From a virus: a stretch of DNA of 64,000 nucleotides. Of the stretch, positions 21,914-46,868 are shown piece by piece; position 1 is the first letter of the stretch, and each line of letters begins with the position of its first letter. The stretch spans positions 32,001-96,000 of IMG/VR virus record IMGVR_UViG_3300021425_003021; one strand, given 5' to 3'. Made by a program: the position numbers and the translations under genes. The notes beneath the pieces are model-generated. The model had not been told where the DNA came from. It saw nothing but the letters and a program-made list of their open reading frames with translations, and made no database searches.

Positions 21914-23287
21914 ATGGAACGTAGCGAAAGCGAAGAAATTAAACGTATTGATACTATTACACAGGAAATATCTCCTACGTTTTGTTTTGCAAAGTGGTAT
22001 CACGCAAATATATATTTTCAAACAGGCGAAACACATAGTTGTTATCATCCTGCACCGCACAAGATTGATACAGCACCCTTGTTAGAAAACCCAAGTGCTA
22101 TACATAATACAGCACAAAAGAAACAAGAACGTGCTGCTATGATGCGTGGTGAACAACCTGCTGGTTGCAACTACTGCTGGAAAATTGAAGCAATGGGCAA
22201 AGATTATGTTAGTGATCGCAAACAACGTAATCAAACTATTTTCTTTAAACACAGATTGGCAGCAGTAAAAGAAGGCGGTGCAGAGTTTGACGTAAATCCA
22301 GAATACTTGGAAGTATCATTTGGCAACGAATGTAACTTTAGATGCGGATATTGTCATCCAAAAGCCAGTAGTAGATATTATCAAGAAATTAAACAGCATG
22401 GTCCGTACACAAACGTAAAAAATCATAGATGCGATATTGACTGGTTTCAAATATTTGAAGAAGAAAACAATCCTTATTTAGATGCATTTTGGCGTTGGTG
22501 GCCTGAGCTTAGTAAAGAGCTACACATACTGCGTATTACAGGCGGTGAGCCTACAATACAAAAAAGTACATACAAACTGTTTGATATGTTGGACGCAGAT
22601 CCAAAGCCAGAACTAGAATTAAACTGTAATAGTAACTTAGGTGGCAAACCAAAGCAGTTGGAAAAGTTTACTAATCGTGTAAATGACTTGTTAACAAACA
22701 ATAAGATTAGACGCTTTAAAATGTTTACAAGTATTGATACTTGGGGTAAACGTGCAGAATATATCCGTGATGGATTAGACATTGAAACTTTTGAACGCAA
22801 TTTGGATTACTTTATGCGTAATTGCGAAGCACCTATGGTGTTGATGATTACATTTAATATTTTTAGTGTTACAACATTCCGTACATTGTTAGAAAAAATC
22901 TTAGAATGGCGTGCCAAGTACAATGATGTAGAAACACATAGATGGCAGCGTTTGGGTTTTGATACACCACACCTTAAAGAGCCGCTACAATACGATATGA
23001 ATATTCTTCCAAAAGAATATATGAGTTATATGCACGATCACTTACAGTTTATAAAAGAAAACGTAGATGATAATCGCAAAGATGCATTCAGCACTATTGA
23101 GTATGAAAAGTTTAGACGTGTTGTTGATTATATGGAAACTACAGAATATCCATTAGAAAAAGTAATCCAAGGTAGGCAAGATTTTCACAACTTTTTTGCA
23201 GAACAAGGCCGCCGTCGTGGAGTTAATCACGAAGAAGTTTTTCCTGAAATGACAGATTTTTTTGATTTATGTAAAAAATATGTTTGA
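21914..23287 (+). CDS. Radical SAM protein with N-terminal twitch-like Fe-S domain
   Basis: CNFRCGYC, TGGEP; N-terminal FCFAKW...SCYH...GCNYC. Confidence 0.9.
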   Translation: MERSESEEIKRIDTITQEISPTFCFAKWYHANIYFQTGETHSCYHPAPHKIDTAPLLENPSAIHNTAQKKQERAAMMRGEQPAGCNYCWKIEAMGKDYVSDRKQRNQTIFFKHRLAAVKEGGAEFDVNPEYLEVSFGNECNFRCGYCHPKASSRYYQEIKQHGPYTNVKNHRCDIDWFQIFEEENNPYLDAFWRWWPELSKELHILRITGGEPTIQKSTYKLFDMLDADPKPELELNCNSNLGGKPKQLEKFTNRVNDLLTNNKIRRFKMFTSIDTWGKRAEYIRDGLDIETFERNLDYFMRNCEAPMVLMITFNIFSVTTFRTLLEKILEWRAKYNDVETHRWQRLGFDTPHLKEPLQYDMNILPKEYMSYMHDHLQFIKENVDDNRKDAFSTIEYEKFRRVVDYMETTEYPLEKVIQGRQDFHNFFAEQGRRRGVNHEEVFPEMTDFFDLCKKYV

Positions 23288-23873
23288 ATTAAAATTATAC
23301 AATAACGATATAGATTTATCTGATTTTTACAAAGAAGCAGAAAAGAAAAAATTTTACAATAATAGTAGTCAAGAAATGCTTATCGATTACATCAGTAAAT
23401 ATGAAGATGCTAAACTATGGTTATTATTATATGATAAAAAGGTAGTAGGCACTGTTGTTGCACACAGGTTGCGTGAATTAGGAATACTAGGAAAAGATGC
23501 ATATAGAATAGGTGCTAGGACCTGTGTCCTCACTCATTTAATCGGCAAACAAAGAGTAAAGAGTTTAAAAGGAAAAACTGATATTCATTATTCTCACGCA
23601 TCTCAATTTTTATTACCTGCTTGTATTGAAGGCGTTGGCAAAGACAAACCTTTATATCTTAGTACACATACAGGAAATATAGGTAGCCAAAATAAAGTGC
23701 ATAATTTTTGGGCAAAACATTTTCATATTGCAGGAGTGCTCGAAAATCCTATAGAACTCGAATACAGGGGCAGTTTTCAAACATTTTGGAAAGTTAATGT
23801 TGACAAATTTTATGAGACATTAAGACTATCTAGATGGTCTGAAGCAGAAGATGTTATACCAATTTTAGTTTAA
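23280..23873 (+). CDS. GNAT-like acyltransferase candidate
   Basis: LWLLLYDKKVVGTVVAH...YRIGARTCVL beta-strand pattern resembles GNAT; similar layout to 56244..56903. ATG 23280 preferred over TTG 23262. Confidence 0.4.
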   Translation: MFELKLYNNDIDLSDFYKEAEKKKFYNNSSQEMLIDYISKYEDAKLWLLLYDKKVVGTVVAHRLRELGILGKDAYRIGARTCVLTHLIGKQRVKSLKGKTDIHYSHASQFLLPACIEGVGKDKPLYLSTHTGNIGSQNKVHNFWAKHFHIAGVLENPIELEYRGSFQTFWKVNVDKFYETLRLSRWSEAEDVIPILV

Positions 23874-25310
23874 ATTTACCCAGTTACTACCGTCATAACC
23901 TTGGAATTTTCTTGTAGAAGTGTTAAAAATAATCATTCCTTCTTCGGCAGAAACGTCGGTTAAATCTGCTTCGGTATGTCCTTTTGCTTTAAATATAGGA
24001 ACAGATAATACGCCTGCACCGTTGAAATTTAAGCCTGTTGGATTATCCCAAAATGCACTAGGTAGGTTTCTGCCGTCGCTTAGAGTAATTGCAAAGTCTG
24101 TTGGATAAATTTCTAAATCTGGATCTGGTTCAATTTCTGTATTAGCATAGAATCCCATACCGCCACCAATCTTATATGCAATACCGTCATATGCGTGAGT
24201 AGTAAATACTGCCATATGATCGCCAGGATTAAGAGGTAGTTTATTTTCGTGATCGCCGTTAAATGCAAAATAATTAATCTGTCCAAGATTTGATGTGTTA
24301 ACCGGATTTGATTGTAATTTAAAACTTATGTTATCTGCATAAACTTCTAGTGTTTCGGTTGCATTGTATCCAATATTAATTTCACCAGTTGCACCACCTT
24401 CTAATCTTACCTGACCTTCGTTTACAGTCAGCACAGGTTGGTCTTCACCGGCAAACACTTCGCCTATTACGTTACCCATAAATGTTGCAAGTACACTAGG
24501 TTTGTCTGTGCCTTCCCATCTAGATAGTTCTAGTACAGGTGTGGCATCAAAATATTCAATGTTTCCTCTGAAACTTGTTTCTTGGTCATTGTTTGTAAAT
24601 TTTAGTATAGGTGCATGAGAATCTGGATGTTCTATACCTGATCTAAACACGTGATGTTCTAGTGTTTCATTCCAAGTAAGCACAGGTTCGTTATTGTCTG
24701 GTCTAACTATACTACCTTTTAAATCGCCGTGTAAAACACCGCTACTACCTTCTAAAATCATATCGCCATTTTCGGTGACAATATCTCCTGTTAAATTACC
24801 AACAACATTGCCTTGTACATTTCCTAAATGTAATCCTGTACTGTTACCAGTCAGATCTCCTGCAAAACTACCTGTGATAGTTCCTACTAAGTTTACTTCG
24901 CCGTTGTGTGTACCATACACATCACCTACAATTCGATCTACAATTAGTGTGCTTGTTCCTGCATCGTAAATTATGTCACCTACACTGTTTACAATATTGC
25001 CTTCTAAATTGCCTTTTAATAAACTACGATTTACATCTACTATTACATTGTTATTAGTGTCCTTAACATTACCTACAACATCCATATGTACTGTTCTACT
25101 ATCAGAATTGAACAAAATGTCGCCTTCGTCGTTTTCAATATTACCTATAAGTGGCCCGTATAGCTTTCCAAATGTAGTATCAACTTGAATAACACCATCT
25201 CTGTTTACAACATTTGCTTTAATTTGGCTAAGCCAACTATCTATAATAAGTGTGCTATCAGCACCAACAATATCAATGCGATACGAATCACCTGGTATAA
25301 AATCAGTCAT
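23865..25310 (-). CDS. Virion structural/fibre-like protein, inverted within the enzyme island
   Basis: Repeated G-(D/N)-(L/V)-x-G motifs; C-terminal EGMIIFNTSTRKFQGYDGSNWVNL shared with 62570..64000; has its own late box and AGGAG SD. Confidence 0.65.
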   Translation of the reverse strand: MTDFIPGDSYRIDIVGADSTLIIDSWLSQIKANVVNRDGVIQVDTTFGKLYGPLIGNIENDEGDILFNSDSRTVHMDVVGNVKDTNNNVIVDVNRSLLKGNLEGNIVNSVGDIIYDAGTSTLIVDRIVGDVYGTHNGEVNLVGTITGSFAGDLTGNSTGLHLGNVQGNVVGNLTGDIVTENGDMILEGSSGVLHGDLKGSIVRPDNNEPVLTWNETLEHHVFRSGIEHPDSHAPILKFTNNDQETSFRGNIEYFDATPVLELSRWEGTDKPSVLATFMGNVIGEVFAGEDQPVLTVNEGQVRLEGGATGEINIGYNATETLEVYADNISFKLQSNPVNTSNLGQINYFAFNGDHENKLPLNPGDHMAVFTTHAYDGIAYKIGGGMGFYANTEIEPDPDLEIYPTDFAITLSDGRNLPSAFWDNPTGLNFNGAGVLSVPIFKAKGHTEADLTDVSAEEGMIIFNTSTRKFQGYDGSNWVNLN

Positions 25311-25328
25311 ACTTTTTCTCCTACAGAG

Positions 25329-25377: not shown

Positions 25378-27321
25378 ATGTATGATGTTTACTTAATTGC
25401 CAACAAAGATGTGTATTCACAAGAATACAAGGATCTTAAATCTAAAATACCGATGCTCAAGTGTGTTGATTCAATTGATCAAGCACAAAAAAGTTGTATT
25501 ACTAAATTCTTTTGGGCAGTGTATCCAGACTTAGACATTTGTGAAGATTTCAATTTTGATTATGTACCTGATGATTGGAGTCAAGATTATGTTCACGTAT
25601 TTCTAAATGATAAAGAATATGACGGTATTAGTCTTATACCAAAAAAAGCAAAAATATCTCAAAAAGAAATTGATTATAGATTTTTTGTAAATAAAAAATT
25701 TATTGAAATTGTAGCCAGTAATCCAAAACCTTATGATTATTTTGAAATAGATAACTATGAACAATACTGCGATGCATTAGAAAAAACAAAAACTCAAATG
25801 TTTTGGATGAGCAGTCCTAACATAAAAGTTAACGAAGTTGTTGATACTTTTTATATTTCTCACCACGAATCCTCTTTGAGACAACAAAATCATGCTTTCA
25901 TTCACAGGGTGGATGATGAAGATTATTATAATGGGTTGTTTTTATGCAGTAAAGATATGCCACTTACAGAAAAAGAAGTTGAACACAGATTTCCTGTTGC
26001 AAGGAAAGAATGGGATATTGTAGCAAGTGGTCCTTGTAAGTATGATATATTTGAAATTAGTACATTTGAACAATATACAAAAGCTCTTGAAAATACTAAA
26101 ACTGAAATGTTTTGGATGAGTAGTGCAAATATAGATGCAACAATACCCAATATTTACTTTACACACGATCAGAAATACAATAGACTGCGTAATCACGCAT
26201 TTATACACAGAGTAAAAGGCGAAGATCATTACAACGGCTTGTTTTTATGTAGTAAATTAAAACCGTTATCAAAAAAAGAAGTTGATTACAGACACCCTGT
26301 TGATAGAAAAGAATGGGATATTGTAGGATCTACAGAAGCTAAATATCAAATATATTTTGTAGATTCGTATCAAGCATATTTAGATGCGTATGACAGAGCT
26401 GATACAGAAATGTTTTATGTTGTTCCTGGACACGTAGATCTTTTAGATGACTTTGCATTTGACGATTATTACAATCACGAAAATGAATATGATAGAAAAA
26501 TTAATCACGTATTTTTAAATGGAGAATTCCACGATGGTGTAGTTTTGTGTAGTAAGCACAGTAAAATTAGTGCTAGAGAATGGCAGTTTATGTTTATTCA
26601 ACATAAAAAAGAACACAACAAATTAGTAAGTACTCCTAAACCGTACGATATGGTTTTCATAAGTTACGAAGAAACTAACGCTGATGAAAACTACGAACTT
26701 ATTTTACAAAGGTATCCACATTGTAAAAGAGTACACGGGGTAAAAGGAATTCATCAAGCTCATATAGAAGCTGCTAAACAATGTTCTACTCCTATGTTTT
26801 GGATTATCGATGGCGATGCACAAATCGAAGATGATTTTAATTTTGAATATCAGGTACCTGTATGGCAATGGGATCACGTACACGTTTGGCGCAGCAGAAA
26901 TCCAGTAAATGGACTTGTATATGGCTATGGTGGTGTAAAGCTATTTCCTAGAGAATTAACCATTAATATGGATACAAACAAACCAGATATGACTACAAGT
27001 ATTAGCTCTAAGTTTAGGGCAGTACAAAAAGTTAGTAATGTTACAGCCTTTAATGTTGGTGAATTTGAAACCTGGAAAAGTGCTTTTAGAGAATGTTGTA
27101 AGTTAAGCAGTAAAGTAATTGACAGACAAAAAGATGTCGAAACTGATAGAAGATTGAAAATATGGTCATCTATTGGACGTGATAAACCGTTTGGAGAGTT
27201 TGCGATCAGAGGTGCTAAAGAAGGCACTATGTACGGCACTGCTAATAAAGGAAATATCGAGGCTTTGAAAAAAATAAATGATTTTGATTGGTTAAAGGAA
27301 GTTTACAATGGAAATCTATAA
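25378..27321 (+). CDS. Multi-repeat glycosyltransferase-like protein
   Basis: Four ~100 aa degenerate repeats followed by a full domain (ISYEE, RVHGVKGIHQAH, IDGDA, NGLVYGYGGVK, WKSAFREC). Confidence 0.65.
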   Translation: MYDVYLIANKDVYSQEYKDLKSKIPMLKCVDSIDQAQKSCITKFFWAVYPDLDICEDFNFDYVPDDWSQDYVHVFLNDKEYDGISLIPKKAKISQKEIDYRFFVNKKFIEIVASNPKPYDYFEIDNYEQYCDALEKTKTQMFWMSSPNIKVNEVVDTFYISHHESSLRQQNHAFIHRVDDEDYYNGLFLCSKDMPLTEKEVEHRFPVARKEWDIVASGPCKYDIFEISTFEQYTKALENTKTEMFWMSSANIDATIPNIYFTHDQKYNRLRNHAFIHRVKGEDHYNGLFLCSKLKPLSKKEVDYRHPVDRKEWDIVGSTEAKYQIYFVDSYQAYLDAYDRADTEMFYVVPGHVDLLDDFAFDDYYNHENEYDRKINHVFLNGEFHDGVVLCSKHSKISAREWQFMFIQHKKEHNKLVSTPKPYDMVFISYEETNADENYELILQRYPHCKRVHGVKGIHQAHIEAAKQCSTPMFWIIDGDAQIEDDFNFEYQVPVWQWDHVHVWRSRNPVNGLVYGYGGVKLFPRELTINMDTNKPDMTTSISSKFRAVQKVSNVTAFNVGEFETWKSAFRECCKLSSKVIDRQKDVETDRRLKIWSSIGRDKPFGEFAIRGAKEGTMYGTANKGNIEALKKINDFDWLKEVYNGNL

Positions 27322-28354
27322 ACTGCTAGATAGGTTTGAGTTATTATATAAAAATGATGATCAATTAGCTGATTTACGCAGAGCATATATAGATCAAGAT
27401 TTGACAAGCATATTTAAATTGTCAAATAGTAGCGAAGATCTACGTAAAGCAATTATGGAAGAAAATTGGCACAGTATTTTCCGTATTATTGACAATAAAA
27501 GAATTATTGGAGAAATTGACGATTTACGAAAAGCAATACTTGAAGAAAACTTGCATAGTCTTTTTAGACTTTTACCAGGTACTGACGATTTAAGAAAAGC
27601 TGTGCTTGATAAAAACATCCACAGTATTTTTAGATTAGTTGATAACAAAGATCTCAAAGGTTTAGTTTTAAACGACAATTATTACGACTTATGGAGAATA
27701 TTAGACAAGTATACTCAAAGCCATTTTGTATATGCATTTAAAACACTGTTAGAAAACGAAATCGAATTTGACGAAGATTGTTTTAGTAGAGGGCAATTAG
27801 AAAGTAAACTTTGGTTAATAGAAGAACTTAAAAAAACAAGTATGAGTTTAGGAACAGTGTTTTTGTGTGCAGGGTGGTACGGAACACTTGCTACAATGAT
27901 GTTTGAAAACAATTTAGATGTTATTAAAATTAGAAGTTTTGATGTTGATAAAACTTGTCCAACTATTGCAGAAATATTCAATAAAAAATGGGTAGTAGAT
28001 GATTGGAAATTTAAAGCAAGTGTACAAGATATACATGATATAAATTTCAATGAAGAACACGTTTATCGTGTATATAAATCTAATGGCGAAGAAGAACTAT
28101 TATGGGATTCGCCGGACACTATTATTAATACCAGTTCGGAGCACATACATAATTTTACAGAATGGTATAATAAAATACCCGATGGTAAATTAGTTGTTAT
28201 ACAAGGCAACAATTATTTTGAAATTGAAGAACACGTAAATTGCAGTAAAGATTTAAAAGAGTTTAGCGATAAATCTCCAATGACAACAGTATTATATGAA
28301 GGCGAATTAGAATTGCCAAAGTACAAAAGGTTTATGAAAATTGGATTTAAGTAA
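27308..28354 (+). CDS. Class I SAM-dependent methyltransferase with N-terminal helical repeats
   Basis: FSRGQ.ESK.WL, LCAGWYG (motif I), SFDVD, INTSSEH; five DL(R/K)xA...HSIFR-type repeats at the N-terminus. Confidence 0.65.
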   Translation: MEIYKLLDRFELLYKNDDQLADLRRAYIDQDLTSIFKLSNSSEDLRKAIMEENWHSIFRIIDNKRIIGEIDDLRKAILEENLHSLFRLLPGTDDLRKAVLDKNIHSIFRLVDNKDLKGLVLNDNYYDLWRILDKYTQSHFVYAFKTLLENEIEFDEDCFSRGQLESKLWLIEELKKTSMSLGTVFLCAGWYGTLATMMFENNLDVIKIRSFDVDKTCPTIAEIFNKKWVVDDWKFKASVQDIHDINFNEEHVYRVYKSNGEEELLWDSPDTIINTSSEHIHNFTEWYNKIPDGKLVVIQGNNYFEIEEHVNCSKDLKEFSDKSPMTTVLYEGELELPKYKRFMKIGFK

Positions 28355-28565: not shown

Positions 28566-29634
28566 AAATATAGTATTGTTGTTTGATGATGTGCAAACGA
28601 AATACGGCAAATTAAATTTTGGTAATGAACATATAGACGAGCTGTATACTCAAATTGTATACAGCAAAAGGGATGACCCGGATCCTAAAATTATTCCTAT
28701 TTTTTACACACACCGGGAAGAAGAAAAATATGTAAACGAATGGATTGCAGATGTAATAAATTTTTTTAACAGGCATAAAGATTTTATAGAGCTAACTAAC
28801 AACAAAATTGTTGTATGCGATTTGTTAGAATCTAATAGAACACTTGCAAAGTCTGTTGAAATTGTATCAAACTACGTCCAGAAAATAATTTATGTAGTAA
28901 CACCTAACTACAAAGTTATATCAACTAATAAAGTAAAATTCTTACACAATCCTACATTTTACAAATTTTTATGGCCGATAAAAAATACCCTAAAGTACAA
29001 ACCAAAAAAATTATATATAAATTTAAATAGGGCATATAGATATCATAGAGCTTTGCTCATAGATAATTTGTATGAACACAATTTATTAAAATGTGGATAT
29101 ACAACATTTGGAGATGCTTATAATGATATAAATCAATATATAGAAGAAAATCCTAATAGCAATCTTGACAAAATTAAATTTGACATCTTAGACGAACCTG
29201 ATTTAAAAAATGTAAATCCTGTTTACAAATATCCAGCCGAGTGTAAAAAAAGTTTTTTATTTCTCAACACAGAAACGTGGGTTGATAATGACAGATTATT
29301 TTTAACTGAAAAATCTTTTAAGCCGGCAGGGATAGGTATGCCTTTTATAAATTTAGGAAACCCTGGTACATTAGCAAAAATGCGAGAGCTAGGTTTCTAC
29401 ACATTTAGCCCTTGGATAGACGAATCTTACGATTTAGATTTGCCATTACAACAAAGAATCGATATTGTAATTGAAAATTTAAAACGTCTAAGTCAACATA
29501 CTGATAAAGAATTAATAAAAATTAGAAACCAAATGAATTATAGAATACAACATAACCACAGATTATATAATATTTTTTATAACAAAAATTTTACAAACGA
29601 AAACTTTCAACTTATTGTAAATGGAGCAGTATAA
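28555..29634 (+). CDS. GT10 (fucosyltransferase)-like/GT-B candidate
   Basis: LNR...HR, ET...FLTEKSFKP, G.PG...MRELGF.TF...DESYD; TEK motif as in the GT10 C-terminal domain. Confidence 0.45.
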   Translation: MIDKNIVLLFDDVQTKYGKLNFGNEHIDELYTQIVYSKRDDPDPKIIPIFYTHREEEKYVNEWIADVINFFNRHKDFIELTNNKIVVCDLLESNRTLAKSVEIVSNYVQKIIYVVTPNYKVISTNKVKFLHNPTFYKFLWPIKNTLKYKPKKLYINLNRAYRYHRALLIDNLYEHNLLKCGYTTFGDAYNDINQYIEENPNSNLDKIKFDILDEPDLKNVNPVYKYPAECKKSFLFLNTETWVDNDRLFLTEKSFKPAGIGMPFINLGNPGTLAKMRELGFYTFSPWIDESYDLDLPLQQRIDIVIENLKRLSQHTDKELIKIRNQMNYRIQHNHRLYNIFYNKNFTNENFQLIVNGAV

Positions 29635-30725
29635 TGTCTATCGCCTGGATCGGATTAGGAAAACTTGGATTGCCTTGTGCTGAAATTATTGCAAGCAAAG
29701 GAATCGATGTTAATGGATATGATATCAAAAAAAGTAAAACCGAGCGTGTTTTAGGATTTCCTAATCTAGCCGGTGCAGTTTCAACTGCAAGTATGGTCTT
29801 TGTAGCAGTACCTACACCGCATCACTCTGATTATGACGGAAGTATGCCTATCAGTCATTTGCCTCCTAAAGACTTTGATTATGACATATTGTACGATGTT
29901 GTTTTACAATGCGATAGAAATATGACAAAAGGAAAAATACTTGTAATTATTTCTACTGTGTTACCTGGAACTATTAGAAAGCTTAAACAAAAAGTAAAAA
30001 ATGCAATTATTGTTTACAATCCTTATCTTATAGCCATGGGTACAGTTGCGCACGATATGGTAAATCCAGAAATGGTTATGATTGGAACAGAAAATGGAAA
30101 AACAACGGCTGAAGCACAAGCGTTGATTGATTTTTATAAAAAAATAATGGAAAACAATCCACGTTACATAGTAGGAACTTGGGAAGAGTGTGAATGCATT
30201 AAAGTTTTTTATAATACATTTATAAGCACAAAACTTGCACTTGTAAATATGATACAAGATGTTGCTGTTAAAAATGGTAATGTAAATGTTGATGTAGTTA
30301 CAAAGGCTTTAGCAGATTCTACTCAAAGAATAACAGGTAGTGCCTATATGAAGGCAGGAATGGGCGACGGCGGTCCTTGTCATCCAAGAGACAACATTGC
30401 TTTGCGTAAGTTATCTCAAGACCTGAATTTAGGGTATGATATATTTGGATGCATTGTTGAAGCTAGAGAAAAACAAGCTGAAAACATGGCCATAGAAATT
30501 TTAAAATATGGAAACAAAGTAAAATTTAGCAGTAACAGCTACAAACCTGATACAGATTTAATCGACGGAAGTTATAGTTTATTAGTGCAATATTATGTTA
30601 AAAAGCACGGTGGTTGGTTAGTTGATGAAAAACCAACAGTTTATGTTTTAGTGCATCCAGAAGACAAACCAATGGAAAATGTTTACAATTTTGATCCTTG
30701 GCATAATTATGGAAACAACAAATGA
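29634..30725 (+). CDS. ugd: UDP-glucose/GDP-mannose 6-dehydrogenase family
   Basis: GLGKLG Rossmann motif, VAVPTP, STVLPG, K..YN, catalytic GGPCHPRD; shortened C-terminal domain. Confidence 0.9.
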   Translation: MSIAWIGLGKLGLPCAEIIASKGIDVNGYDIKKSKTERVLGFPNLAGAVSTASMVFVAVPTPHHSDYDGSMPISHLPPKDFDYDILYDVVLQCDRNMTKGKILVIISTVLPGTIRKLKQKVKNAIIVYNPYLIAMGTVAHDMVNPEMVMIGTENGKTTAEAQALIDFYKKIMENNPRYIVGTWEECECIKVFYNTFISTKLALVNMIQDVAVKNGNVNVDVVTKALADSTQRITGSAYMKAGMGDGGPCHPRDNIALRKLSQDLNLGYDIFGCIVEAREKQAENMAIEILKYGNKVKFSSNSYKPDTDLIDGSYSLLVQYYVKKHGGWLVDEKPTVYVLVHPEDKPMENVYNFDPWHNYGNNK

Positions 30726-36671: not shown

Positions 36672-36735
36672 ATTGTCATATTTAAAAAAGCTTTATGATA
36701 ATCGCAAATGGAAAAAATCATTTGCAGATTTACAT

Positions 36736-37587: not shown

Positions 37588-38845
37588 TTATCCGTGCTAT
37601 TATGCACTAGGAGGTATAAACCTAAAACAAAAATTTGCTACAAGTTGTCCGCAACAATCGGACAGATTACAATGGATGGCAAAAGGACACTTGCCTAGTC
37701 AGTACTTTAACAATGAAAATTTTAGACAACATCGTTTGGATCTGTTAAACGGAAACTGGCCAAAAGGTTGTGATATGTGTCAATATGTAGAAGAACAAAA
37801 TTCTGGTGTTAGTATGAGGCAAGAAACACCTGCAGACACTTCATACACAGATTTCAAAACAGGTAAAACAAAATTCGAAGGTCTTAAAACTATAGAAATA
37901 CGATTTAGTAATAGTTGTAATATGGCTTGTTTGCATTGTAGTGCAGCGTTTAGTAGTGGTTGGATGACCAAGCTTAAACGTTATGAACCTGATCAAATTG
38001 ATAGAGATCATAGATTGATACAACTTACACAAGATATGCATCGCGAAACAGAAGAAGAAGATTTAAGGATTGATCTTAACACTGAAAAAGCGTTGGAAAT
38101 AGTAGATGATCTTAATGCAAACTTTCCAAATTTAGAACGTGTAGATTTTGCAGGTGGTGAAGTACTTTATCAAAAACCTTTTTTGCCTACTCTTGAAAGA
38201 CTAGCAGAACATCCTAATGCAAAAAATATGTTTGTAATGTTTCACACTAACTTTAATGCTGATTTTGATCCTATAAAATTAAATGATTGTTTAGAAAAAT
38301 TTGGATCAAGTGAAGTAAAAATCAGTATTGATAGTAGTCCTAAAACGTATCAGTACTTTAGAGGAGGAAGTTGGGAAAAATTAGCAGACAATATTGCAAA
38401 ATTTAAGTCAGTAAGAAGTGAAAAAACAAAAATTTGCTTAATTTGTACAACAGGTGTTTATCAAATCATGCAATTTAAAGATATTTTACAAGGGCTTATA
38501 GATTTAGAATGTGATTATATTGATACAAGTATAATTTTTACACCAGACTATTTAAATCCTGCATTAATGATGATAGATTTTAAAGAAGAAACTTTAAAAG
38601 AATTGAATTCTAGTATTGAATTGTTGATGAAATACTCGAGAGAACGTTCGGATATCTATATGAGTTATCAAAGTGTTAAAAGAATACATCAATATGTTCT
38701 AAATCATAAAGTTTATGACAAAGAGTGGCAATCTTTTAAAGAATATGTGAAAAAAACTGATATGATATGGAAGCAAGAATTCAACGATCACTTTACAAAT
38801 TATAAATTTGACAAAGAAAATAACAGGATATATAGAAATGTTTAA
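37574..38845 (+). CDS. Radical SAM protein with N-terminal twitch-like domain
   Basis: YPCYY...SCP...GCDMC, then CNMACLHC, AGGE. Confidence 0.9.
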   Translation: MTENSYPCYYALGGINLKQKFATSCPQQSDRLQWMAKGHLPSQYFNNENFRQHRLDLLNGNWPKGCDMCQYVEEQNSGVSMRQETPADTSYTDFKTGKTKFEGLKTIEIRFSNSCNMACLHCSAAFSSGWMTKLKRYEPDQIDRDHRLIQLTQDMHRETEEEDLRIDLNTEKALEIVDDLNANFPNLERVDFAGGEVLYQKPFLPTLERLAEHPNAKNMFVMFHTNFNADFDPIKLNDCLEKFGSSEVKISIDSSPKTYQYFRGGSWEKLADNIAKFKSVRSEKTKICLICTTGVYQIMQFKDILQGLIDLECDYIDTSIIFTPDYLNPALMMIDFKEETLKELNSSIELLMKYSRERSDIYMSYQSVKRIHQYVLNHKVYDKEWQSFKEYVKKTDMIWKQEFNDHFTNYKFDKENNRIYRNV

Positions 38846-39662
38846 GTCTAGCAACAATTTATACAAAAAATTAGGTGAAGAATTTATTTTAACAACTATT
38901 AGTCACCTTGATATACCTTTTAGTAAAAAATGGAAAAGAATTGGAATTAATTTAAGTGGCGGTGCTGACAGTGCATTACTTGCTTTTTTGTTAGGAAAAA
39001 TTATTACTGATAATAATTTAGATTGCAAAATAGATGTAATCACATATCAACGTTGTTGGGAAACAAGACCTTGGCAAGGTTGGTGGAGTTTGCAGGTTTT
39101 CAATAAGTTAAAAAGTTTTTATCCTGATGTTATTGAAAATAGACACACAACATTTATACCTCCTGCATTAGAACACGGTGTAAGCGGTCCTATTATAGAT
39201 GGACGCAGTGGAGATCAGATTATAGTTGGCGATTTTAACAAATTTGCCAGTTGGGAATACAATTTAGATGCAGTGTTCAATGCTACAAGTAAAAATCCTG
39301 ATGATTCACGTGAGGATAGAATGAAAAACAGAGATGGGGATGCTGAAGATGCAAATACTTGGGATGTTTTATGGTATAGTGGAAAATTAAAAAGTCATTT
39401 TTGCCATCCTTTTAGGTTTGTTAAAAAAGATTGGATAGTAGCTCAATATCATCTTTACAATATCACAGATCTGTATTATACTACACGTAGCTGTGAAGGA
39501 GATATCAATCATAACCAAGCTGTATCTGATGTTGTGAAAGACTTCACAAAATACACTCCTGGTATGGATGTACCTGTTTGTAATGAATGTTGGTGGTGTA
39601 GTGAAAGAAAATGGGCCGAAGACAGAGTCCCTGAAATGATAAAGGAAATAAATGAGTTTTGA
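38838..39662 (+). CDS. QueC-like PP-loop ATPase
   Basis: NLSGGADS; TRSCEG...CNECWWC.ER; AGGA SD before ATG 38838. Confidence 0.75.
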   Translation: MFKSSNNLYKKLGEEFILTTISHLDIPFSKKWKRIGINLSGGADSALLAFLLGKIITDNNLDCKIDVITYQRCWETRPWQGWWSLQVFNKLKSFYPDVIENRHTTFIPPALEHGVSGPIIDGRSGDQIIVGDFNKFASWEYNLDAVFNATSKNPDDSREDRMKNRDGDAEDANTWDVLWYSGKLKSHFCHPFRFVKKDWIVAQYHLYNITDLYYTTRSCEGDINHNQAVSDVVKDFTKYTPGMDVPVCNECWWCSERKWAEDRVPEMIKEINEF

Positions 39663-40830
39663 TACAATAGATTTACTTACAGGGCACGTTTTTCAAGTAA
39701 CTTGGGATACAGGTCGTAGATGCAATTATGATTGTAGTTATTGTCCTGTACATAGACACGATAATTTTTCACCACACGCAACATTGGACAGTTTGAAAGA
39801 CAATGTTGACTTTCTTTATGAATATATTGATTTGCATATACAATATAGAAAGAGTAAGATTGCTAATATAGGGTTTACAGGTGGCGAACCCACTGTTAAT
39901 CCTAACTTTATTCCTTTTGCGCAATATCTTAGATCTGAATATGATACCAAATACAAAGACAAATGGGAATGTGGATTTGCTCTAACTACAAATGGTGCTA
40001 TGGGTGAAAAAATGGGTCAAGCAGTGATGGAAAATTTTGATCACGCTACAGTAAGTTATCATAGCGAAAGCGACAACAAGTTAAAACAGCAAGTTAAAGA
40101 TAGAATTTTACAGTTTCATTATCAAGGAGAGATGCATAATTTCACAGTCAGCGTAAATGTTATGTTTCATGCTGAATATTTTGACGAATGTAAAGAGCTA
40201 TGTGGATTTTTGGAAAGCCATAATGTTGATTATGTGCCAAGAGTTATCGGTGAAGAGCCTGATAGTAGACCTAGTTTTGCACACAAATACAATGAAGAAC
40301 AATTACAGTGGTTTAAAGATTACTGGCGTGTAAAGAATGAAAACAAAAATGACGAAAAAGAAATTAGCAAAGTATTAAGTGCTGCCGGTGAAAAGAAAAA
40401 TGAAAAGAAAAAACTAGGTAACAGTATCGGACGTCCTTGTTGTGGTAGCAGAGATATGTTATTACATACCGGAGCAAACAGTCGTAAAAGTAATTTTGTA
40501 GACTTTAGAGAATTCAAAGGATGGAATTGTAGTGTGAACTGGTTCTTCCTACATTTAGAACAACAAACAGATAGTGTTTATCATCATCAAACTTGTCAGG
40601 CACGTTTTGATGGTACTAGGGGACGTATTGGTAAACTAAGTGAAGGTAAAAAACTTATTGCAGATCTAAAAGAAAAAATGGAAACCAATAGTATGCCAAC
40701 TATTATTTGTCCTAAACAAACCTGCGGTTGCGGATTGTGTGCTCCAAAAAGTATGCATCAAGCTAGATATTTAGAAGTTGTAGGCAATCATATCGAAACA
40801 GAGGTATTAAATGATTATAACAGGAAATAA
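39652..40830 (+). CDS. Radical SAM protein with C-terminal Cys cluster
   Basis: TWDTGRRCNYDCSYC, TGGEP; PCCG, W.C, TC, ICPKQTCGCGLC. Confidence 0.9.
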   Translation: MSFDTIDLLTGHVFQVTWDTGRRCNYDCSYCPVHRHDNFSPHATLDSLKDNVDFLYEYIDLHIQYRKSKIANIGFTGGEPTVNPNFIPFAQYLRSEYDTKYKDKWECGFALTTNGAMGEKMGQAVMENFDHATVSYHSESDNKLKQQVKDRILQFHYQGEMHNFTVSVNVMFHAEYFDECKELCGFLESHNVDYVPRVIGEEPDSRPSFAHKYNEEQLQWFKDYWRVKNENKNDEKEISKVLSAAGEKKNEKKKLGNSIGRPCCGSRDMLLHTGANSRKSNFVDFREFKGWNCSVNWFFLHLEQQTDSVYHHQTCQARFDGTRGRIGKLSEGKKLIADLKEKMETNSMPTIICPKQTCGCGLCAPKSMHQARYLEVVGNHIETEVLNDYNRK

Positions 40831-41365
40831 AGATAAAGGTATTGCAAAGGCATTACATAAATTATATCCAGATGCAGAATTTTGTAGTCAAAGTACAGGT
40901 TATGATTTAGCACGTAAACTAGATCAAGAAAGATTAGCAGAGCGTGTCTGTGAACACGATGTGTTTATTAATTGTAGTGCATTGTTTAAATTTCATCAAA
41001 CAACACTTCTTAACATTGTATATCACAAATGTATGTTAGAAAAACATTGGTGTCATATTATTAATGTAGGTAGTACAACAGATAGAGTAAAAAAAGGCGG
41101 CAGCTGGTTATACAATGCAGAAAAGAAGGCATTAAGAGATTACTCAAACACATTAGGATTAAACGGAGTTTGGCACAGTGGTCCTAAGATTAGTTACATA
41201 AGTTTTGGTACTTTGAGTAATAACCAAGAAAAACATCCAAACAGAACTGTAATTGATATTGATGAAGCAACTAGTTATATCAAATGGGTAATTGATCAGC
41301 CTAGAGAGCTATGCATAAATGAAATTAGTATAGACCCTATGCAACCAGACCATTGGAAAAGCTAA
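40811..41365 (+). CDS. Short SDR-family oxidoreductase
   Basis: ITGN...GIA, DVFINCS, INVGS, YNAEK (YxxxK). Confidence 0.75.
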   Translation: MIITGNKDKGIAKALHKLYPDAEFCSQSTGYDLARKLDQERLAERVCEHDVFINCSALFKFHQTTLLNIVYHKCMLEKHWCHIINVGSTTDRVKKGGSWLYNAEKKALRDYSNTLGLNGVWHSGPKISYISFGTLSNNQEKHPNRTVIDIDEATSYIKWVIDQPRELCINEISIDPMQPDHWKS

Positions 41366-42573
41366 TGTCTGATTTGCCAAAGTATGCTTGTCAACTTCCT
41401 ATGCATCATATGGCAATACGTCCAGATGGTCGTGTTATGCCCTGTTGTTATTTCAGGCATGAACACGTTCCTACAGATTTAAATTTATCTTTAGAAGATC
41501 CTTTTAACCATCCTTTTATGAAACAAAATAGAGAAAGTGTTTTAAATGATGAAATGATTCCTGGTTGCAGCAAATGCTACGAAGATGAAAAAACATCTGG
41601 TAACAGTATGCGCACCGACATTTATAACTCTCCATACAATTTTTTAAATTTACCTACAGATGATACTAGAGGTAAAGTTGCAAAACTTACAAATATTGAT
41701 GTAACATTTAGTAACGTTTGTAACAACAAGTGTAGAATGTGTGGTCCAGAACTTAGTACACAATGGTACAGTGACGCTAAGAAAATGGGATATCCTTTTG
41801 AAAAACGTGGTGTAATTGCTGAAAACAAATGGATAGAAACAGCCAATGTAAGTGATTTAACATTTATCAAGTTCTTAGGCGGCGAACCGTTAATGGAACA
41901 GGAAAAAATGATACAGCTATTGCAAAAGTGTAATAGAGAAAAATTAGTCGTTCATATTACCACTAACGGAACATTATTGCCTAATGAGACATTACATAAT
42001 TTACTAACAGAATGCGAAGGTGTGTATATGACTGTTAGTGTAGATCAATTTGGACAGTTTAACGAGTTTTTACGTAAAGGCAGTAATTGGAATACCACCA
42101 TTGAAAATATGTTTACAATGAAAGAGCATTATGGTAAGCATACAACAACTGTACATTCTGTAACATCAATATACAATGTAAATTTGTGTAATCAATTGAT
42201 CGATTTTTGTATTAATGAAAGATTTTATCAAAAAAATGCTGTTGTTGACGGTCCTAATTGGATGATGCCAAGAAATCTGCCAAAAAAAGTCAAAGCTAAA
42301 TTAATAAAGTTGCTAAATTTAAACATACAAAATACAAACCTGCCAAAACATTTGTCATATCTATATGATGCAACTGCTCATTATGAATTACTAATTAATG
42401 AATTAGAGCAAGATGGCGATTTTGGAATGTTTTTACGTAATGATACAAGACTAAACATTATACGCAATGAACATTGGAAAGATTACAATCCATGGCTATG
42501 GAATGAGCTTAAACCTTATTTTGTTGAAACACAACTTGAAGATGGACAATTGGATTATCTAAATACTCTCTGA
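41365..42573 (+). CDS. Radical SAM protein with N-terminal twitch domain
   Basis: ACQLP...PDG..MPCC...GCSKC, then CNNKCRMC, LGGEP; TAATG coupling to the SDR. Confidence 0.9.
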   Translation: MSDLPKYACQLPMHHMAIRPDGRVMPCCYFRHEHVPTDLNLSLEDPFNHPFMKQNRESVLNDEMIPGCSKCYEDEKTSGNSMRTDIYNSPYNFLNLPTDDTRGKVAKLTNIDVTFSNVCNNKCRMCGPELSTQWYSDAKKMGYPFEKRGVIAENKWIETANVSDLTFIKFLGGEPLMEQEKMIQLLQKCNREKLVVHITTNGTLLPNETLHNLLTECEGVYMTVSVDQFGQFNEFLRKGSNWNTTIENMFTMKEHYGKHTTTVHSVTSIYNVNLCNQLIDFCINERFYQKNAVVDGPNWMMPRNLPKKVKAKLIKLLNLNIQNTNLPKHLSYLYDATAHYELLINELEQDGDFGMFLRNDTRLNIIRNEHWKDYNPWLWNELKPYFVETQLEDGQLDYLNTL

Positions 42574-43105: not shown

Positions 43106-43690
43106 TTGCAAATCGTATATGGCGAGCCAAGAACAGGTTCTCATTTTATAGCAAGGAATTTTGCAAATCAATACAACAAAATATTTTTAGGTGAGTATTT
43201 TAAAAGTCCAATTCCTAATGCACAAGTAAACATATTTAAAAAAATTGATACATTACCAAAAAATTCTGTTATCATAGTTCATCCAGATTTATCATATGGA
43301 CAATATCCTGAAGAATTTTACACTTGGTTATTTTCCAATGAATTAATTGTCACAGAAACTGATGATAGATGGCGGCAGGTTGTCAGTTGGGGACTTGCAG
43401 CAAAAACAACAAATTATCACAGTTATAATGGTTCAAGATATTTAGAACAAAATATCGCATACAAAAGAAATTTTTTTGATATGTTAAAAAATTCTATTAA
43501 AAAATACAACGAAACAAAACATCTAATAAAATACAAAGATTTAATAAATTTAAGTAGTATAAAAAAACAACAAGTTTTTGAAGGAAAATATCAATTACCA
43601 CACAAAACATATCGACAAAAAACAGATGAATTATGTCTAATGTATAGCAATTTAAATGAAGTAAAACAGTGGTACAATGAACTATTATAA
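43106..43690 (+). CDS. Sulfotransferase-like (P-loop) protein
   Basis: N-terminal GEPRTGSHF (PRTGS 5'-PSB-like), LGEYF, Q..SW. Confidence 0.55.
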   Translation: MQIVYGEPRTGSHFIARNFANQYNKIFLGEYFKSPIPNAQVNIFKKIDTLPKNSVIIVHPDLSYGQYPEEFYTWLFSNELIVTETDDRWRQVVSWGLAAKTTNYHSYNGSRYLEQNIAYKRNFFDMLKNSIKKYNETKHLIKYKDLINLSSIKKQQVFEGKYQLPHKTYRQKTDELCLMYSNLNEVKQWYNELL

Positions 43691-43695
43691 TGTAA

Positions 43696-43702
43696 ATAAA
43701 TA
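43696..43702 (+). promoter_or_regulatory. T4-late-like promoter ATAAATA
   Basis: Followed by AGGAG 43714-43718 and ATG 43725. Confidence 0.7.
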
Positions 43703-43724
43703 CAATTGTATACAGGAGATTACC

Positions 43725-44375
43725 ATGGATCATAAACAAATTGAAAAAGCAGTGATTAGAAGTCAACATTGTCAGCGTAATTGGGACTTGTCAAAACAAA
43801 TTCCACAAGAAGATTTAGATTTAATTCAACACGCTGTAACACAATGTCCTAGCAAACAAAATGTTGCTTTTTACAAAGTGCATATGATTACCGATAGAAA
43901 CTTAATCGAAGCCATACACGCTAATACAGAAGGATTTACAACAAATTTTGTTACAATGGAAGGTGAAACCAACAGTCAAACACTAGCAAATCTGTTAATT
44001 GTTTTTGAGGCATACAACGGTCATTTAAATAAAGATAACAATGTATTCAGAAATGATGAAATATTGAAAATGGACACAGGAAAAGAACTAACTGAAGCAG
44101 AGCAAGAAACATTTAAAAGAGATCAACAAATGGCAGTTGGCATTGCAGCAGGTTATGCTAATGTAACTAGTGCAATGATGGGATACGGAACTGGTTGCTG
44201 TGCTTGTTTTGATGGTAAAGCAATAGAAGATTTACTAAATTTAGATGGTCCTGTTTTATTAATGATGGGTATAGGATATAAAGATCCAACTCGTAATAGA
44301 AGAGAGCATCACGAAACTGGGTTTGTATTTCCTACAAAACCAAAACAAAAGATCAAAGTTAAAAAGCATTACTAA
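43725..44375 (+). CDS. Nitroreductase-family flavoprotein
   Basis: QRNWD...IP.EDL...CPSKQN, GIAAG...A..MGYGTG, LMMGIGY; SD supports start 43725. Confidence 0.8.
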   Translation: MDHKQIEKAVIRSQHCQRNWDLSKQIPQEDLDLIQHAVTQCPSKQNVAFYKVHMITDRNLIEAIHANTEGFTTNFVTMEGETNSQTLANLLIVFEAYNGHLNKDNNVFRNDEILKMDTGKELTEAEQETFKRDQQMAVGIAAGYANVTSAMMGYGTGCCACFDGKAIEDLLNLDGPVLLMMGIGYKDPTRNRREHHETGFVFPTKPKQKIKVKKHY

Positions 44376-44383
44376 TTGTTCTA

Positions 44384-44390: not shown

Positions 44391-44394
44391 GTGT

Positions 44395-45723
44395 ATGAAA
44401 GATACTTTTTGCCCAATTCCTTGGAATTTTCAGGCTGTGCGAAACAATGGCGATATACGTATATGCTGTCAAGCTAATGTAACAGAAAATCAAGGAGTGA
44501 TTAGACACTGTGATGGTACTCCTTATAATGCAAGTCGTGACAGCTTAGAAGATGCACGTAATGCCAATCTTATGAAAACTGTTCGAAAAAATATGCTTAA
44601 TGGTGTTTGGAGCCAAGAATGCGGCAGATGCCAGCAGGAAGAAGAAGCAGGACTTAACAGTAGACGTCAATATGAGCAACAAAATTGGCCTACATTTACT
44701 ATTGATAAGGCAAAACAAGTCACTGACGACGATGGCGGTGTAAGTGAAATTCCAGTAACTTATTACGATTTACGTTTCGGAAACTTGTGTAATCTTGCTT
44801 GTAGAATGTGCGGACCTACTGACAGTCATACTTGGTATGAACAATGGGTAGATTATCACAAATCAAATGAATATATTGACACACACGGCACAGTATCATT
44901 GCAACGTAATGCCAAAGGAAGACTGTTCACAAACGATTATGATTGGCACGGCAGTGATGTATTTTGGAATAGTATTGAAAAAAACATTCCAAATATAAAA
45001 CACGTTTATATGGCTGGCGGAGAGCCCATGATGATCGAACGTCATTATGAATTTTTACAAAAATGTATAGATAGCGGTTATGCTGGTAAAATCATTATAG
45101 AATATAATACAAATATGACTAATCTTCCTGAGCGTGTATTACAAATGTGGAAACATTTTAGACAAGTTAGAGTTGGAGCCAGCATCGATGGATACGGCGA
45201 TATGTTAGAGTATCAAAGATGGCCATTGAAATGGAACCAAGCATATAAAAATTTAAAAAAGTTAGATCAATTGTGTATTGATAATAAAAACATATTTGCT
45301 TGGCTAGCTTGCACAGTAACAGCTAATAATGTATTTCATATACCTGAATTTATGTGGTGGAAACTAAAAGAAAGTGGTTTTAAAAAAATTAATAGTTCTA
45401 AAAAAAGACCTGTAATTACACACCACGTAGCACACGGTCCAAAAAGAACAAACATAAAATTATTAGATCCTACACTAAAATTAGATTTACACAATCATTA
45501 TGAATCTTGGAAAAATAAATTTATGTTTGATAATGAAATCGAACAAAGTGTAAAAGAAAATGCAACTAGTATACTTGATAGTATATTAAAATTTGCAAAC
45601 AAAGAAGATTATTCAAATGATTATATCGATGAATTTGTAAATTTTACAAAATACTTAGATAAAGCAAGAAATCAAAATATACTAGATGTTGTACCACAAT
45701 ATTCTAAATTATTTGACAAATAA
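44395..45723 (+). CDS. Radical SAM protein with N-terminal twitch domain
   Basis: FCPIPW...RICC...CGRC, then CNLACRMC, AGGEP. Confidence 0.9.
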   Translation: MKDTFCPIPWNFQAVRNNGDIRICCQANVTENQGVIRHCDGTPYNASRDSLEDARNANLMKTVRKNMLNGVWSQECGRCQQEEEAGLNSRRQYEQQNWPTFTIDKAKQVTDDDGGVSEIPVTYYDLRFGNLCNLACRMCGPTDSHTWYEQWVDYHKSNEYIDTHGTVSLQRNAKGRLFTNDYDWHGSDVFWNSIEKNIPNIKHVYMAGGEPMMIERHYEFLQKCIDSGYAGKIIIEYNTNMTNLPERVLQMWKHFRQVRVGASIDGYGDMLEYQRWPLKWNQAYKNLKKLDQLCIDNKNIFAWLACTVTANNVFHIPEFMWWKLKESGFKKINSSKKRPVITHHVAHGPKRTNIKLLDPTLKLDLHNHYESWKNKFMFDNEIEQSVKENATSILDSILKFANKEDYSNDYIDEFVNFTKYLDKARNQNILDVVPQYSKLFDK

Positions 45724-45741: not shown

Positions 45742-45746
45742 TAGAA

Positions 45747-46868
45747 ATGACTGAAGATTTAAAATGGTCAAACTATGACTTTACTAAAATACCGTTTGAT
45801 GATATTGTTCAAGTAGGACAACGTACTTTATTATATAGAGATATCTTTACAGTGTCTTGGCTATTAGGTAGATTTTGTAATTACAGATGTAGTTATTGCT
45901 GGCCTTATGCACGTAGCGATAGAAAAGATCATAGACCCACAGAATTGTGTTTAAAAACCATAGACGAAATAAAGAGGCAAGCACGTGAAAACGGATTTAA
46001 TAGTTATCATTTTTCTCTTAGTGGCGGGGAGCCTACTTTCCACCCTGGCTACTTGGATATTTTACAGCATTTGGCTAATGATGTAGAAAACACAAATTAT
46101 ACAAGTATTCATATGACTAGTAACTGTAGTCGGCCAATGAAATGGTTTGAAACTTATGTAGAACGTGCGAAACCATTTCACAGAGCAAGTATTACAGCAA
46201 GTTTACATACAGAACACTTAAATACAAAGGAGAAGATGCAGGACTTTGCAGATAAATTAATCCTGTGTCAAGAACACGATGTACAGATTACCATTAATAT
46301 GGTCATGGTACCTGAATGGTTCGAGAGAGATTGGGAAAACGCCCTCTTCTTCCACGAACAAGGAATCAACGTTACACTCAAGCCGCAATCCGATCCAACG
46401 GCTAGTAGAGTGGTTGACGGGTACAAAGAAGAAGACCTAAAACGTTTATGGAACGGAATGCCTCAACGAGCATACACAGAATCAAAAAGAAAATTTGTAG
46501 ATAGACCAAAGCCCAAGTTTGAAATCCCTAAAGACATAATGTACAGACCAGATGCTAGTGTACCTTGGCATATGCAGGTAGAATTTAGAGATAGTCAAGG
46601 CAATCCTTGGTATATGGATCAAGCCGAAAGATTTAATGCTTTTGAATTTAATAAATTTAAAGGATGGAATTGTAATGCAGGATATCAAGGTATTATTATT
46701 CGCGAACCTGATGGAAGTGTTAAACGCAGTTACAGTTGCCACGATGTACCGTTGGGCAATATTGAAACAGGATTTAAACTGTTTGACAAACCTATGCCTT
46801 GTATGACAGATAGTTGTGTTAGTAGTGCAGATAGTAAAATTCCTAAAAGGAAAATTGATGCATTATAA
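45747..46868 (+). CDS. Radical SAM protein with C-terminal SPASM-like domain
   Basis: SWLLGRFCNYRCSYC, SGGEP; WNCNAG...DG.V.R..SC...LGNI...C...SC. Confidence 0.9.
   Translation: MTEDLKWSNYDFTKIPFDDIVQVGQRTLLYRDIFTVSWLLGRFCNYRCSYCWPYARSDRKDHRPTELCLKTIDEIKRQARENGFNSYHFSLSGGEPTFHPGYLDILQHLANDVENTNYTSIHMTSNCSRPMKWFETYVERAKPFHRASITASLHTEHLNTKEKMQDFADKLILCQEHDVQITINMVMVPEWFERDWENALFFHEQGINVTLKPQSDPTASRVVDGYKEEDLKRLWNGMPQRAYTESKRKFVDRPKPKFEIPKDIMYRPDASVPWHMQVEFRDSQGNPWYMDQAERFNAFEFNKFKGWNCNAGYQGIIIREPDGSVKRSYSCHDVPLGNIETGFKLFDKPMPCMTDSCVSSADSKIPKRKIDAL

Follow-up and report, generated by a model that had tools for sequence, protein, structure and literature searches.

We analyzed a 64,000-nucleotide stretch of viral DNA (the window), bases 32001-96000 of the 105,490-base IMG/VR viral record IMGVR_UViG_3300021425_003021, which has a completeness of 29% (CheckV). 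The window carries an island of ten radical S-adenosylmethionine (SAM) genes of three architectures, called here classes A, B, and C. One gene of each class (35268, 31855, and 45747; open reading frames [ORFs] are named by their lowest window coordinate) belongs to an ancient conserved core that also includes two uncharacterized protein families, those of genes 20998 and 27308. The same core recurs in phages and in Bdellovibrionota, which makes the three architectures a single conserved functional unit with accessories.

Major head proteins 65-70% identical to the one encoded here are found in Vibrio phage 2.275.O (349 kb), Pseudomonas phage PA5oct, Cronobacter phage GAP32, and Sinorhizobium phage Phosso. 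Taken together with the T4-like portal and SbcCD-type genes on the record, the tail-fiber-type proteins encoded on both sides of the radical SAM island, and a window G+C content of ~32%, this identity indicates that the window is a piece of an uncultured marine jumbo myovirus of the Rak2/GAP32/PA5oct type. None of the cultured phages compared by DNA is close to the record.

Three radical SAM architectures

A first-pass annotation, made by a model from the sequence, had listed ten radical SAM ORFs in three architectures, and both the number and the division hold. All ten match the Pfam Radical_SAM model (PF04055), 7 of them above its gathering score, and all ten have a CX3CX2C motif near the start of the core that is invariant in 103 class A, 199 class B, and 114 class C relatives. 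The GGE motif is likewise invariant in classes A and C, and the class B variant, CG..GDP, aligns to it with a 2-residue insertion. The division into three architectures is borne out by class-specific motifs and sets of cysteines.

Six of the proteins had been described as having an auxiliary (twitch-type) domain at the N-terminus. These are the class A proteins, and all six pass the NCBIfam model NF033640 (N_Twi_rSAM, twitch domain-containing radical SAM protein; curated cut-off 170 bits) over its full length (model positions 1-398). On the plus strand they are 21914 (21914-23287; 299.8 bits), 35268 (35268-36671; 418.5 bits), 37574 (37574-38845; 204.6 bits), 41353 (41353-42573; 244.7 bits), for which the ATG at 41365 is a plausible start, and 44395 (44395-45723; 363.2 bits). 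Gene 35268 is the most conserved core member, and 44395 is its nearest paralog (34% identity, tree distance 2.37). The sixth, 32928 (32928-34274; 244.5 bits), lies on the minus strand; its NF033640 match begins at residue 45, and its true start is probably the ATG at 34145 and not the TTG at 34274. With NF033640, classes B and C score 24-46 bits in the core region only and are non-members. The Pfam SPASM model (PF13186; cut-off 21.5 bits) also matches the N-terminus of three class A proteins at 24.2-27.7 bits (model positions 1-67), covering residues 49-110 of 32928, 9-94 of 35268, and 13-76 of 41353; it has no match in the remaining three class A proteins nor in classes B and C. By these profile matches the "reversed" architecture, with the twitch domain ahead of the core, appears to be real, yet it is already catalogued as NF033640, an uncharacterized family.

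In class A the motif C-x11-13-G-x4-C(C)...CxxC comes ~55 residues ahead of CX3CX2C, and the N-terminal cysteine motif occupies residues 9-93 of 35268. Among 103 class A family members (35268 numbering) C9 is kept in 100, C27 in 101, and both C90 and C93 in all; near the C-terminus D448 is kept in 94, R451 in 98, and P460 in 90. The annotation had noticed this C-terminal D-x2-R...F-P element as a shared feature, and in the window D-x2-R is found in 4 of the 6 class A proteins and F-P in 3 of them. NF033640 as a family has the same C-x9-15-G-x4-C...CxxC N-terminal domain, the same CX3CX2C and GGE, and the same C-terminal D-x2-R...P. What distinguishes the window from NF033640 at large is that it joins six copies with two other architectures in a phage, and that its relatives have 4-13 copies per contig: in five related contigs the N_Twi genes above the cut-off number 4, 6, 6, 10, and 13, in addition to other radical SAM genes.

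The CC pair of this motif is altered to C-Y in 21914 and to C-P in 37574, which has a diverged N-terminal domain. These changes, seen already in the first reading, are real, and each is fixed in its ortholog clade. The second cysteine of the pair is present in 92 of the 103 family members, and of 481 class A sequences ~9% have Y, W, S, H, G, V, P, or A in its place; the first is almost never lost. The cysteine retained in 21914 is the canonical G-x4-C ligand, and in the clade of its orthologs the following residue is Y or H. Although the fit of the 37574 clade to the family hidden Markov model is poor, C8, C25 (C8-x11-G-x4-C25), and C66xxC69 are invariant in its 22 distinct orthologs, with K in place of G in the window copy. 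Only the non-canonical second cysteine is gone, and four auxiliary cysteines are kept in all six window class A proteins, so the open or His-ligated iron site that had been proposed from these substitutions is not needed to explain the sequences and is unsupported.

Class B consists of 31855 (31855-32940, plus strand), a core member with C18/C22/C25, CG..GDP, and a C-terminal twitch-like domain, and its paralog 34177 (34177-35271, plus strand; 32% identical). The replacement of GGEP by CG..GDP and the C-terminal C...PCC...CxxxC pattern are kept in the 199 relatives as predicted, with C257, PC276(C277), and C345xxxC349 conserved. Class C consists of 39652 (39652-40830, plus strand; Radical_SAM 43.8 bits), with a C-terminal cysteine-rich domain, and the core member 45747 (45747-46868, plus strand; Radical_SAM 58.2 bits), which are 26% identical to each other. 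Their W..GR.CNY.CSYC motif and the four cysteines of the C-terminal clusters (C309, C331, C352, and C357 in 45747) are also kept, in the 114 relatives.

In comparisons of deep alignments the cores of classes A and B are specifically related (hhalign 99.2%, E 6e-20) and have a common SIDG....N.YR block. The N-terminal domain of class A aligns to the C-terminal domain of class B over 72 columns (hhalign 74%, E 2.7e-5), with hairpin-CC falling on hairpin-CC and CxxC on CxxxC; a shallower comparison of the same two domains was non-significant. On this evidence classes A and B look like domain-order permutations of one ancestor. For class C the core match is 97.7%, and deep hhalign detected no sequence homology between the C-terminal domain of class C and the auxiliary domains of A and B. 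Class C is a more distant, conventional enzyme.

The AlphaFold2 model of 35268 (predicted local distance difference test [pLDDT] 92.9, predicted template modeling score 0.92) begins with a beta-hairpin (strands at residues 15-18 and 23-25) and has a helix at residues 88-98 that starts at CxxC. Only the core of this class A model, from about residue 113-134 onward, superposes on solved structures (BlsE, Z 11.4; SkfB, 11.2; viperin, 10.9); sequential structure aligners cannot place an N-terminal domain onto C-terminal twitch domains. The model of the class C protein 45747 (pLDDT 90.1) can be superposed over almost its whole length on BlsE (Z 17.4, root-mean-square deviation 3.7, 270 residues), followed by SkfB (16.7), EpeE (16.2), and anSME (15.0), and by this model 45747 would be a canonical core with a C-terminal auxiliary domain.

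A further question was whether the ten proteins would all fall into well-characterized families. None of them reaches the cut-off of any characterized or housekeeping equivalog. Viperin (NF038283), MoaA (TIGR02666), QueE (TIGR03963), anSME (TIGR03942), and the peptide maturase equivalogs give 15-45 bits against cut-offs of 131-650, and the BlsE equivalog (TIGR04466, cytosylglucuronate decarboxylase; cut-off 400 bits) gives at best 26 bits, with 41353, and 21 bits with 34177.

A core common to phages and Bdellovibrionota

Gene contexts were reconstructed from related loci and with tblastn, and the counts below cover 80 viral loci and 65 genome (cellular) loci. Orthologs of 35268 (82-93% identity) are found on 153 IMG/VR contigs and in more than 2,000 protein clusters, including some from Tara Oceans samples. 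The genes that keep their synteny are the 20998-like gene, the 27308-like gene, 31855, 35268, and 45747; the other A, B, and C paralogs, the QueC-like genes, and a gene for a small protein resembling short-chain dehydrogenases/reductases (SDR-like) are shuffled extras. Orthologs of 31855 occur in 75/80 viral and 48/65 genome loci, those of its paralog 34177 in 79/80 viral loci, and 27308-like genes in 67/80 viral loci.

The closest cellular homologs of 35268 (55-62% identity) are on chromosome-sized contigs of Bdellovibrionota, which include the isolate Bdellovibrio sp. HCB2-146 and complete chromosomes of metagenome-assembled genomes (MAGs). The class B and class C genes of this bacterial core are ~45% and ~65% identical to the window copies, respectively, and both lie within 10 kb of the 35268 ortholog in 41 of the 65 genome loci. 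Radical SAM density in some bacterial loci reaches 11 genes per 21 kb. Phage-like arrays with 52-81% identity to 35268 were also seen at loci L085-L088, L130, L131, L138, L140, and L142, on contigs binned into MAGs of Flavobacteria, Neisseriaceae, Planctomycetota, Gammaproteobacteria, Rickettsiales, Verrucomicrobiales, Chloroflexota, and Acidimicrobiaceae; these are probably phage contigs that were wrongly binned.

Cultured phages have more distant versions of the class A proteins. Full-length NF033640 matches are present in Vibrio phage K566 (2 above the cut-off and 3 scoring 133-155 bits) and in KVP40 (3, scoring 114-131 bits), and proteins of KVP40 and phi-pp2 are structural matches in BFVD. 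The N_Twi-like proteins of K566, K567, and KVP40 are far more diverged (~21-24% identity), and no class B or class C core partner was detected in cultured phages, K566 and KVP40 included. In K566 (L084; cultured, 255 kb) a gene carrying the annotation lipid A acylation protein PagP is found at a distance of a few kb from the N_Twi-like cluster (record 161548-172010).

Two of the five core genes are not radical SAM genes. Gene 20998 (20998-21912, plus strand) belongs to a family with GT-A-like motifs, including an invariant D65-G-D67 and an N-terminal IVYLSYDEPN-type strand, and a 20998-like gene adjoins the 35268 ortholog in Bdellovibrionota. The family alignment of 27308 (27308-28354, plus strand) shows N-terminal helical repeats of ~25 residues and a methyltransferase-like C-terminal domain, the latter on the basis of a weak atlas lead to Methyltransf_31/PCMT clusters. 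Profile searches of the PDB with the 27308 and PP-loop families gave nothing significant. Between these two genes lies 25378 (25378-27321, plus strand), a two-part protein with a C-terminal half paralogous to 20998 and a weak match to family 2 glycosyltransferases (GT2) at residues 447-523 (E 0.045). Parts resembling 20998, the C-terminal half of 25378, and 27308 are fused in single ORFs of 878-1,222 residues at L049:3904-7077, L065:1273-4938, L046:5662-8685, and L074:4427-7060; the copy number of the ~25-residue repeat block of 27308 varies among these fusions.

The annotation had spoken of an expansion of radical SAM genes, which is not the history that the tree supports: the paralogs are ancient and have been put together as cassettes. 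The six window paralogs are separated by 2.4-5.4 substitutions per site in a tree of 252 class A sequences, where every one of them has orthologs of its own at 0.1-1.5 in other phage contigs, and the clades of 35268 and 21914 take in Bdellovibrionales sequences. All ten genes are under strong purifying selection, with ratios of nonsynonymous to synonymous substitution rates (dN/dS) of 0.04-0.12 relative to their orthologs (0.046 for 21914), values that are approximate at the high dS of these comparisons. The expectation that such highly diverged paralogs have different substrates or carry out different steps fits their deep divergence and the separate orthologs of each. Their assembly into heteromers, suggested at the same time, receives only indirect support, from the conserved trio of A, B, and C, from long relatives with several CX3CX2C motifs, and from a fusion of class A and QueC-like proteins at L068. 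These relatives belong to a large family: a profile of the six paralogs matches 6,537 clusters (50% identity) at E <= 1e-30. Among the 150 best family representatives 35 exceed 700 residues, and 33 of these 35 have two or three CX3CX2C motifs, which is consistent with tandem modules. The fusions that we uphold are those at L068 and those of the 20998, 25378 C-terminal, and 27308 parts. Apparent fusions of class B with class A in L019 and L025, and of class C with class B in L008, were rejected for in-frame stops at the junctions.

Gene 32928 is the sole minus-strand radical SAM gene in an otherwise plus-strand array. In at least one related contig, L038, its relative (38% identity) has the plus-strand orientation, and this one cassette may therefore have undergone a local inversion.

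Sugar, peptide, or nucleotide chemistry

The function to which we give the greatest weight, at about even odds, is that the ten genes encode a cytoplasmic battery for tailoring sugars or glycans by two-cluster radical chemistry. SAM would be cleaved at the [4Fe-4S] cluster of the CX3CX2C motif to produce a 5'-deoxyadenosyl radical, which would take a hydrogen atom from an unactivated C-H bond, and a second [4Fe-4S] cluster, predicted to be fully cysteine-ligated, would handle the electron. The twitch-type domain would hold this auxiliary cluster, N-terminally in class A and C-terminally in classes B and C. The chemistry would be comparable to that of BtrN, BlsE, and SpeY, twitch enzymes that oxidize, decarboxylate, or epimerize sugars. 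We expect that the substrate is most likely a sugar, either a nucleotide sugar or a glycan attached to its acceptor, and that the product would be an unusual glycan decoration, with a structure that may vary between phage strains. The remaining paralogs, the QueC-like ATPases, the SDR-like protein, the nitroreductases, and the PF05118 oxygenases would then provide swappable add-on steps. A virion or tail-fiber acceptor is suggested only by the flanking tail-fiber genes.

Sugar or glycan tailoring in the cytoplasm is the reading best supported by the bacterial GT2 context, the sugar-type genes of the phage, the GT-A-like motifs, the fusions, and the lack of membrane proteins. In Bdellovibrio sp. 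HCB2-146 six GT2 glycosyltransferases and an FtsJ-like methyltransferase surround the module, and in a Halobacteriovoraceae MAG its neighbors are two GT2 genes, a QueC-like PP-loop gene (27 bits, passing Pfam), and a PF05118 oxygenase; the context is thus glycosyltransferase-rich in two of the three bacterial loci examined. The phage island itself has a variable cassette with a UDP-glucose/GDP-mannose dehydrogenase (29634-30725, plus strand; PF03721 and PF00984). No membrane proteins are encoded at 18-59 kb of the window, which suggests cytoplasmic chemistry. The sugar enzymes with twitch or SPASM domains BlsE (7VOB), BtrN (4M7S), SpeY (7WZV), and DesII (8HZY) likewise combine a partial TIM-barrel core with an auxiliary cysteine-rich domain and have a sugar-related gene context. 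BlsE, a nucleoside-glucuronate decarboxylase, is the top structural match of both the class A and the class C models. However, BlsE-type enzymes are just 12-17% identical to the window proteins, and their auxiliary domain follows the core, whereas that of class A precedes it.

Several observations weigh against sugar tailoring. The bacterial locus L089 is a bare core among unrelated genes with no GT2 gene nearby. Most neighbors of the phage island have no match in Pfam, even at E 5. The 20998 family would be a glycosyltransferase by its motifs alone, having no Pfam match and only non-significant results in a PDB profile search. The UDP-glucose dehydrogenase is found in few related loci and is therefore variable and not part of the core. 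We know of no NF033640, class B, or class C member that has a known substrate. GT2 enzymes and PF05118 oxygenases are also able to act on peptides and proteins. Finally, the matches to BlsE are tied within ~1 Z unit with those to the peptide-modifying enzymes SkfB, EpeE, CteB, and SuiB, and therefore the structural matches cannot choose between a sugar and a peptide substrate.

The first alternative is a modification of proteins or peptides resembling that of ribosomally synthesized peptides with post-translational modifications (RiPPs); we regard it as unlikely but the strongest of the competing explanations. Here the radical SAM enzymes would epimerize, cross-link, or C-methylate the tail fibers, the 4,589-residue protein described below, or an unrecognized precursor, the PF05118 enzymes would hydroxylate Asp/Asn, and enzymes of the nitroreductase and PP-loop types would tailor the product further. 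The SPASM peptide maturases anSME (4K36), SkfB (6EFN), CteB (5WGG), SuiB (5V1Q), and EpeE (8AI1) share the fold class and have Z scores no more than 1 unit from BlsE, and these together with PqqE are statistically tied with BlsE as structural neighbors. Also in favor of this alternative are two genes of the nitroreductase family, one inside the array (43677-44375, plus strand; PF00881) and a second copy at 49408-50058, and a downstream block (48067-53494, plus strand) with at least four paralogous 2-oxoglutarate (2OG) oxygenases of the PF05118 (Asp/Asn beta-hydroxylase) type, starting at 48067, 48626, 50724, and 52733. The tail-fiber genes and the D/N-rich giant protein bracket the island, and GT2 enzymes can glycosylate peptides. 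Against these points, the window proteins have only one auxiliary cluster motif and no second SPASM half, and the tightly packed island showed no RiPP recognition element, leader peptidase, transporter, or small gene for a precursor. All of the peptide-maturase equivalogs are far under their cut-offs, the minimal bacterial module L089 has no candidate precursor, and two of the three bacterial contexts are, as noted, rich in glycosyltransferases.

Nucleobase or nucleotide chemistry is a still less probable alternative, to which we give little weight. Pairs of radical SAM and QueC-like genes would in this case mimic QueE/QueC and lead to 7-deazapurine-like or hypermodified DNA bases, or to viperin-like nucleotide analogs with an antiviral or anti-defense role. 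Radical SAM and QueC-like genes do alternate in the island, where the latter are 36631 (36631-37587, plus strand), with weak PP-loop and QueC matches in Pfam, and 38808 (38808-39662, plus strand), the partner of 37574, assigned by family alignment. At L068:12544-15033 (plus strand) a 37574-like N_Twi protein (residues 1-438) is fused without a stop codon to a 38808-like PP-loop protein of QueC type (residues 590-827). SGGADS, TRSCE, and CxxCxxC are invariant in the alignment of the QueC-like family, which thereby retains the SGGADS plus C...CxxCxxC site, and viperin is among the top structural and sequence matches of the radical SAM proteins. QueE/QueC likewise have a radical SAM gene followed by a PP-loop ATPase with SGGxDS and C...CxxCxxC. 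The radical SAM partner in the window is, however, an N_Twi protein and not QueE, and the Pfam QueC model (PF06508; cut-off 22 bits) gives a sub-threshold 13.1 bits with 36631 and no match with 38808. Neither FolE, QueD, TGT/DpdA, nor a bona fide QueC was found on the 105-kb contig (~29% of the genome), and QueE, viperin, and MoaA equivalogs are far below their cut-offs. In addition, the QueC-like genes are accessory and not part of the core, and the same core is present in glycosyltransferase-rich chromosomal loci of Bdellovibrionota.

Campylobacter phages CP220/CPt10 are T4-superfamily phages like the present one and also have a radical SAM array, with 11-12 genes in interchangeable modules, but differ in host and lineage; it was suggested that those are auxiliary metabolic genes for host metabolism or low oxygen, acting outside any dedicated pathway (Timms et al. 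2010, PMC2853527). This is very improbable here, as none of the window proteins matches a housekeeping equivalog, the module that the present genes make up is conserved, syntenic, and co-inherited and has partner families and fusions dedicated to it, and CP220 has no NF033640 member (<=31 bits, in the core only, with no N-terminal twitch).

Returning to sugar tailoring, a more specific version of it can be entertained tentatively. The A, B, and C trio with its GT-A-like and methyltransferase-like partners would be an undescribed multi-enzyme radical machine, common to jumbo phages and predatory Bdellovibrionota, that makes a new, heavily C-H-functionalized class of sugars on protein or virion surfaces in oxic seawater. 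The swappable N_Twi paralogs would then give strain-specific glycans used for adsorption or for evading recognition. We consider this possible but doubtful.

Our literature search found no characterization of radical SAM enzymes with an N-terminal twitch domain, nor any account of this island for jumbo phages or Bdellovibrio. The enzymes add new members to a family that has been catalogued but not studied, and the core of phages and Bdellovibrionota is an uncharacterized variant of twitch-type radical SAM tailoring systems. NF033640 and its relatives are a very large radical SAM family without a known reaction, and tailed phages abundant in ocean metagenomes spend 10-20 genes on it. Identifying a substrate would assign chemistry to thousands of proteins and make plain the benefit that a battery of oxygen-sensitive enzymes brings to a phage in surface seawater, and it would probably reveal new modifications of sugars or proteins on virions or on the surfaces of predator cells. 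This question is directly testable with the conserved trio, the natural fusions, and the cultured carriers (Bdellovibrio sp. HCB2-146 and Vibrio phages K566 and KVP40).

Other genes in and around the island

The small SDR-like protein (40811-41365, plus strand) has a weak adh_short match and travels with the array; its orthologs (58-96% identity) are found in 38 viral loci and in Bdellovibrionota loci. The island also encodes a GDSL esterase and an aminotransferase-like protein.

Directly 5' of the tail-fiber genes is an ORF of ~4,589 residues that is rich in D and N and contains only 6 cysteines. It occupies positions 1-9999 of the window, with its start upstream (genome 28215-41999), and is presumably a giant virion or baseplate protein.

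The block at 48067-53494 additionally contains one weak TET/JBP-like 2OG oxygenase. Its oxygenases are oxygen-dependent and are encoded beside radical SAM enzymes that are oxygen-sensitive.

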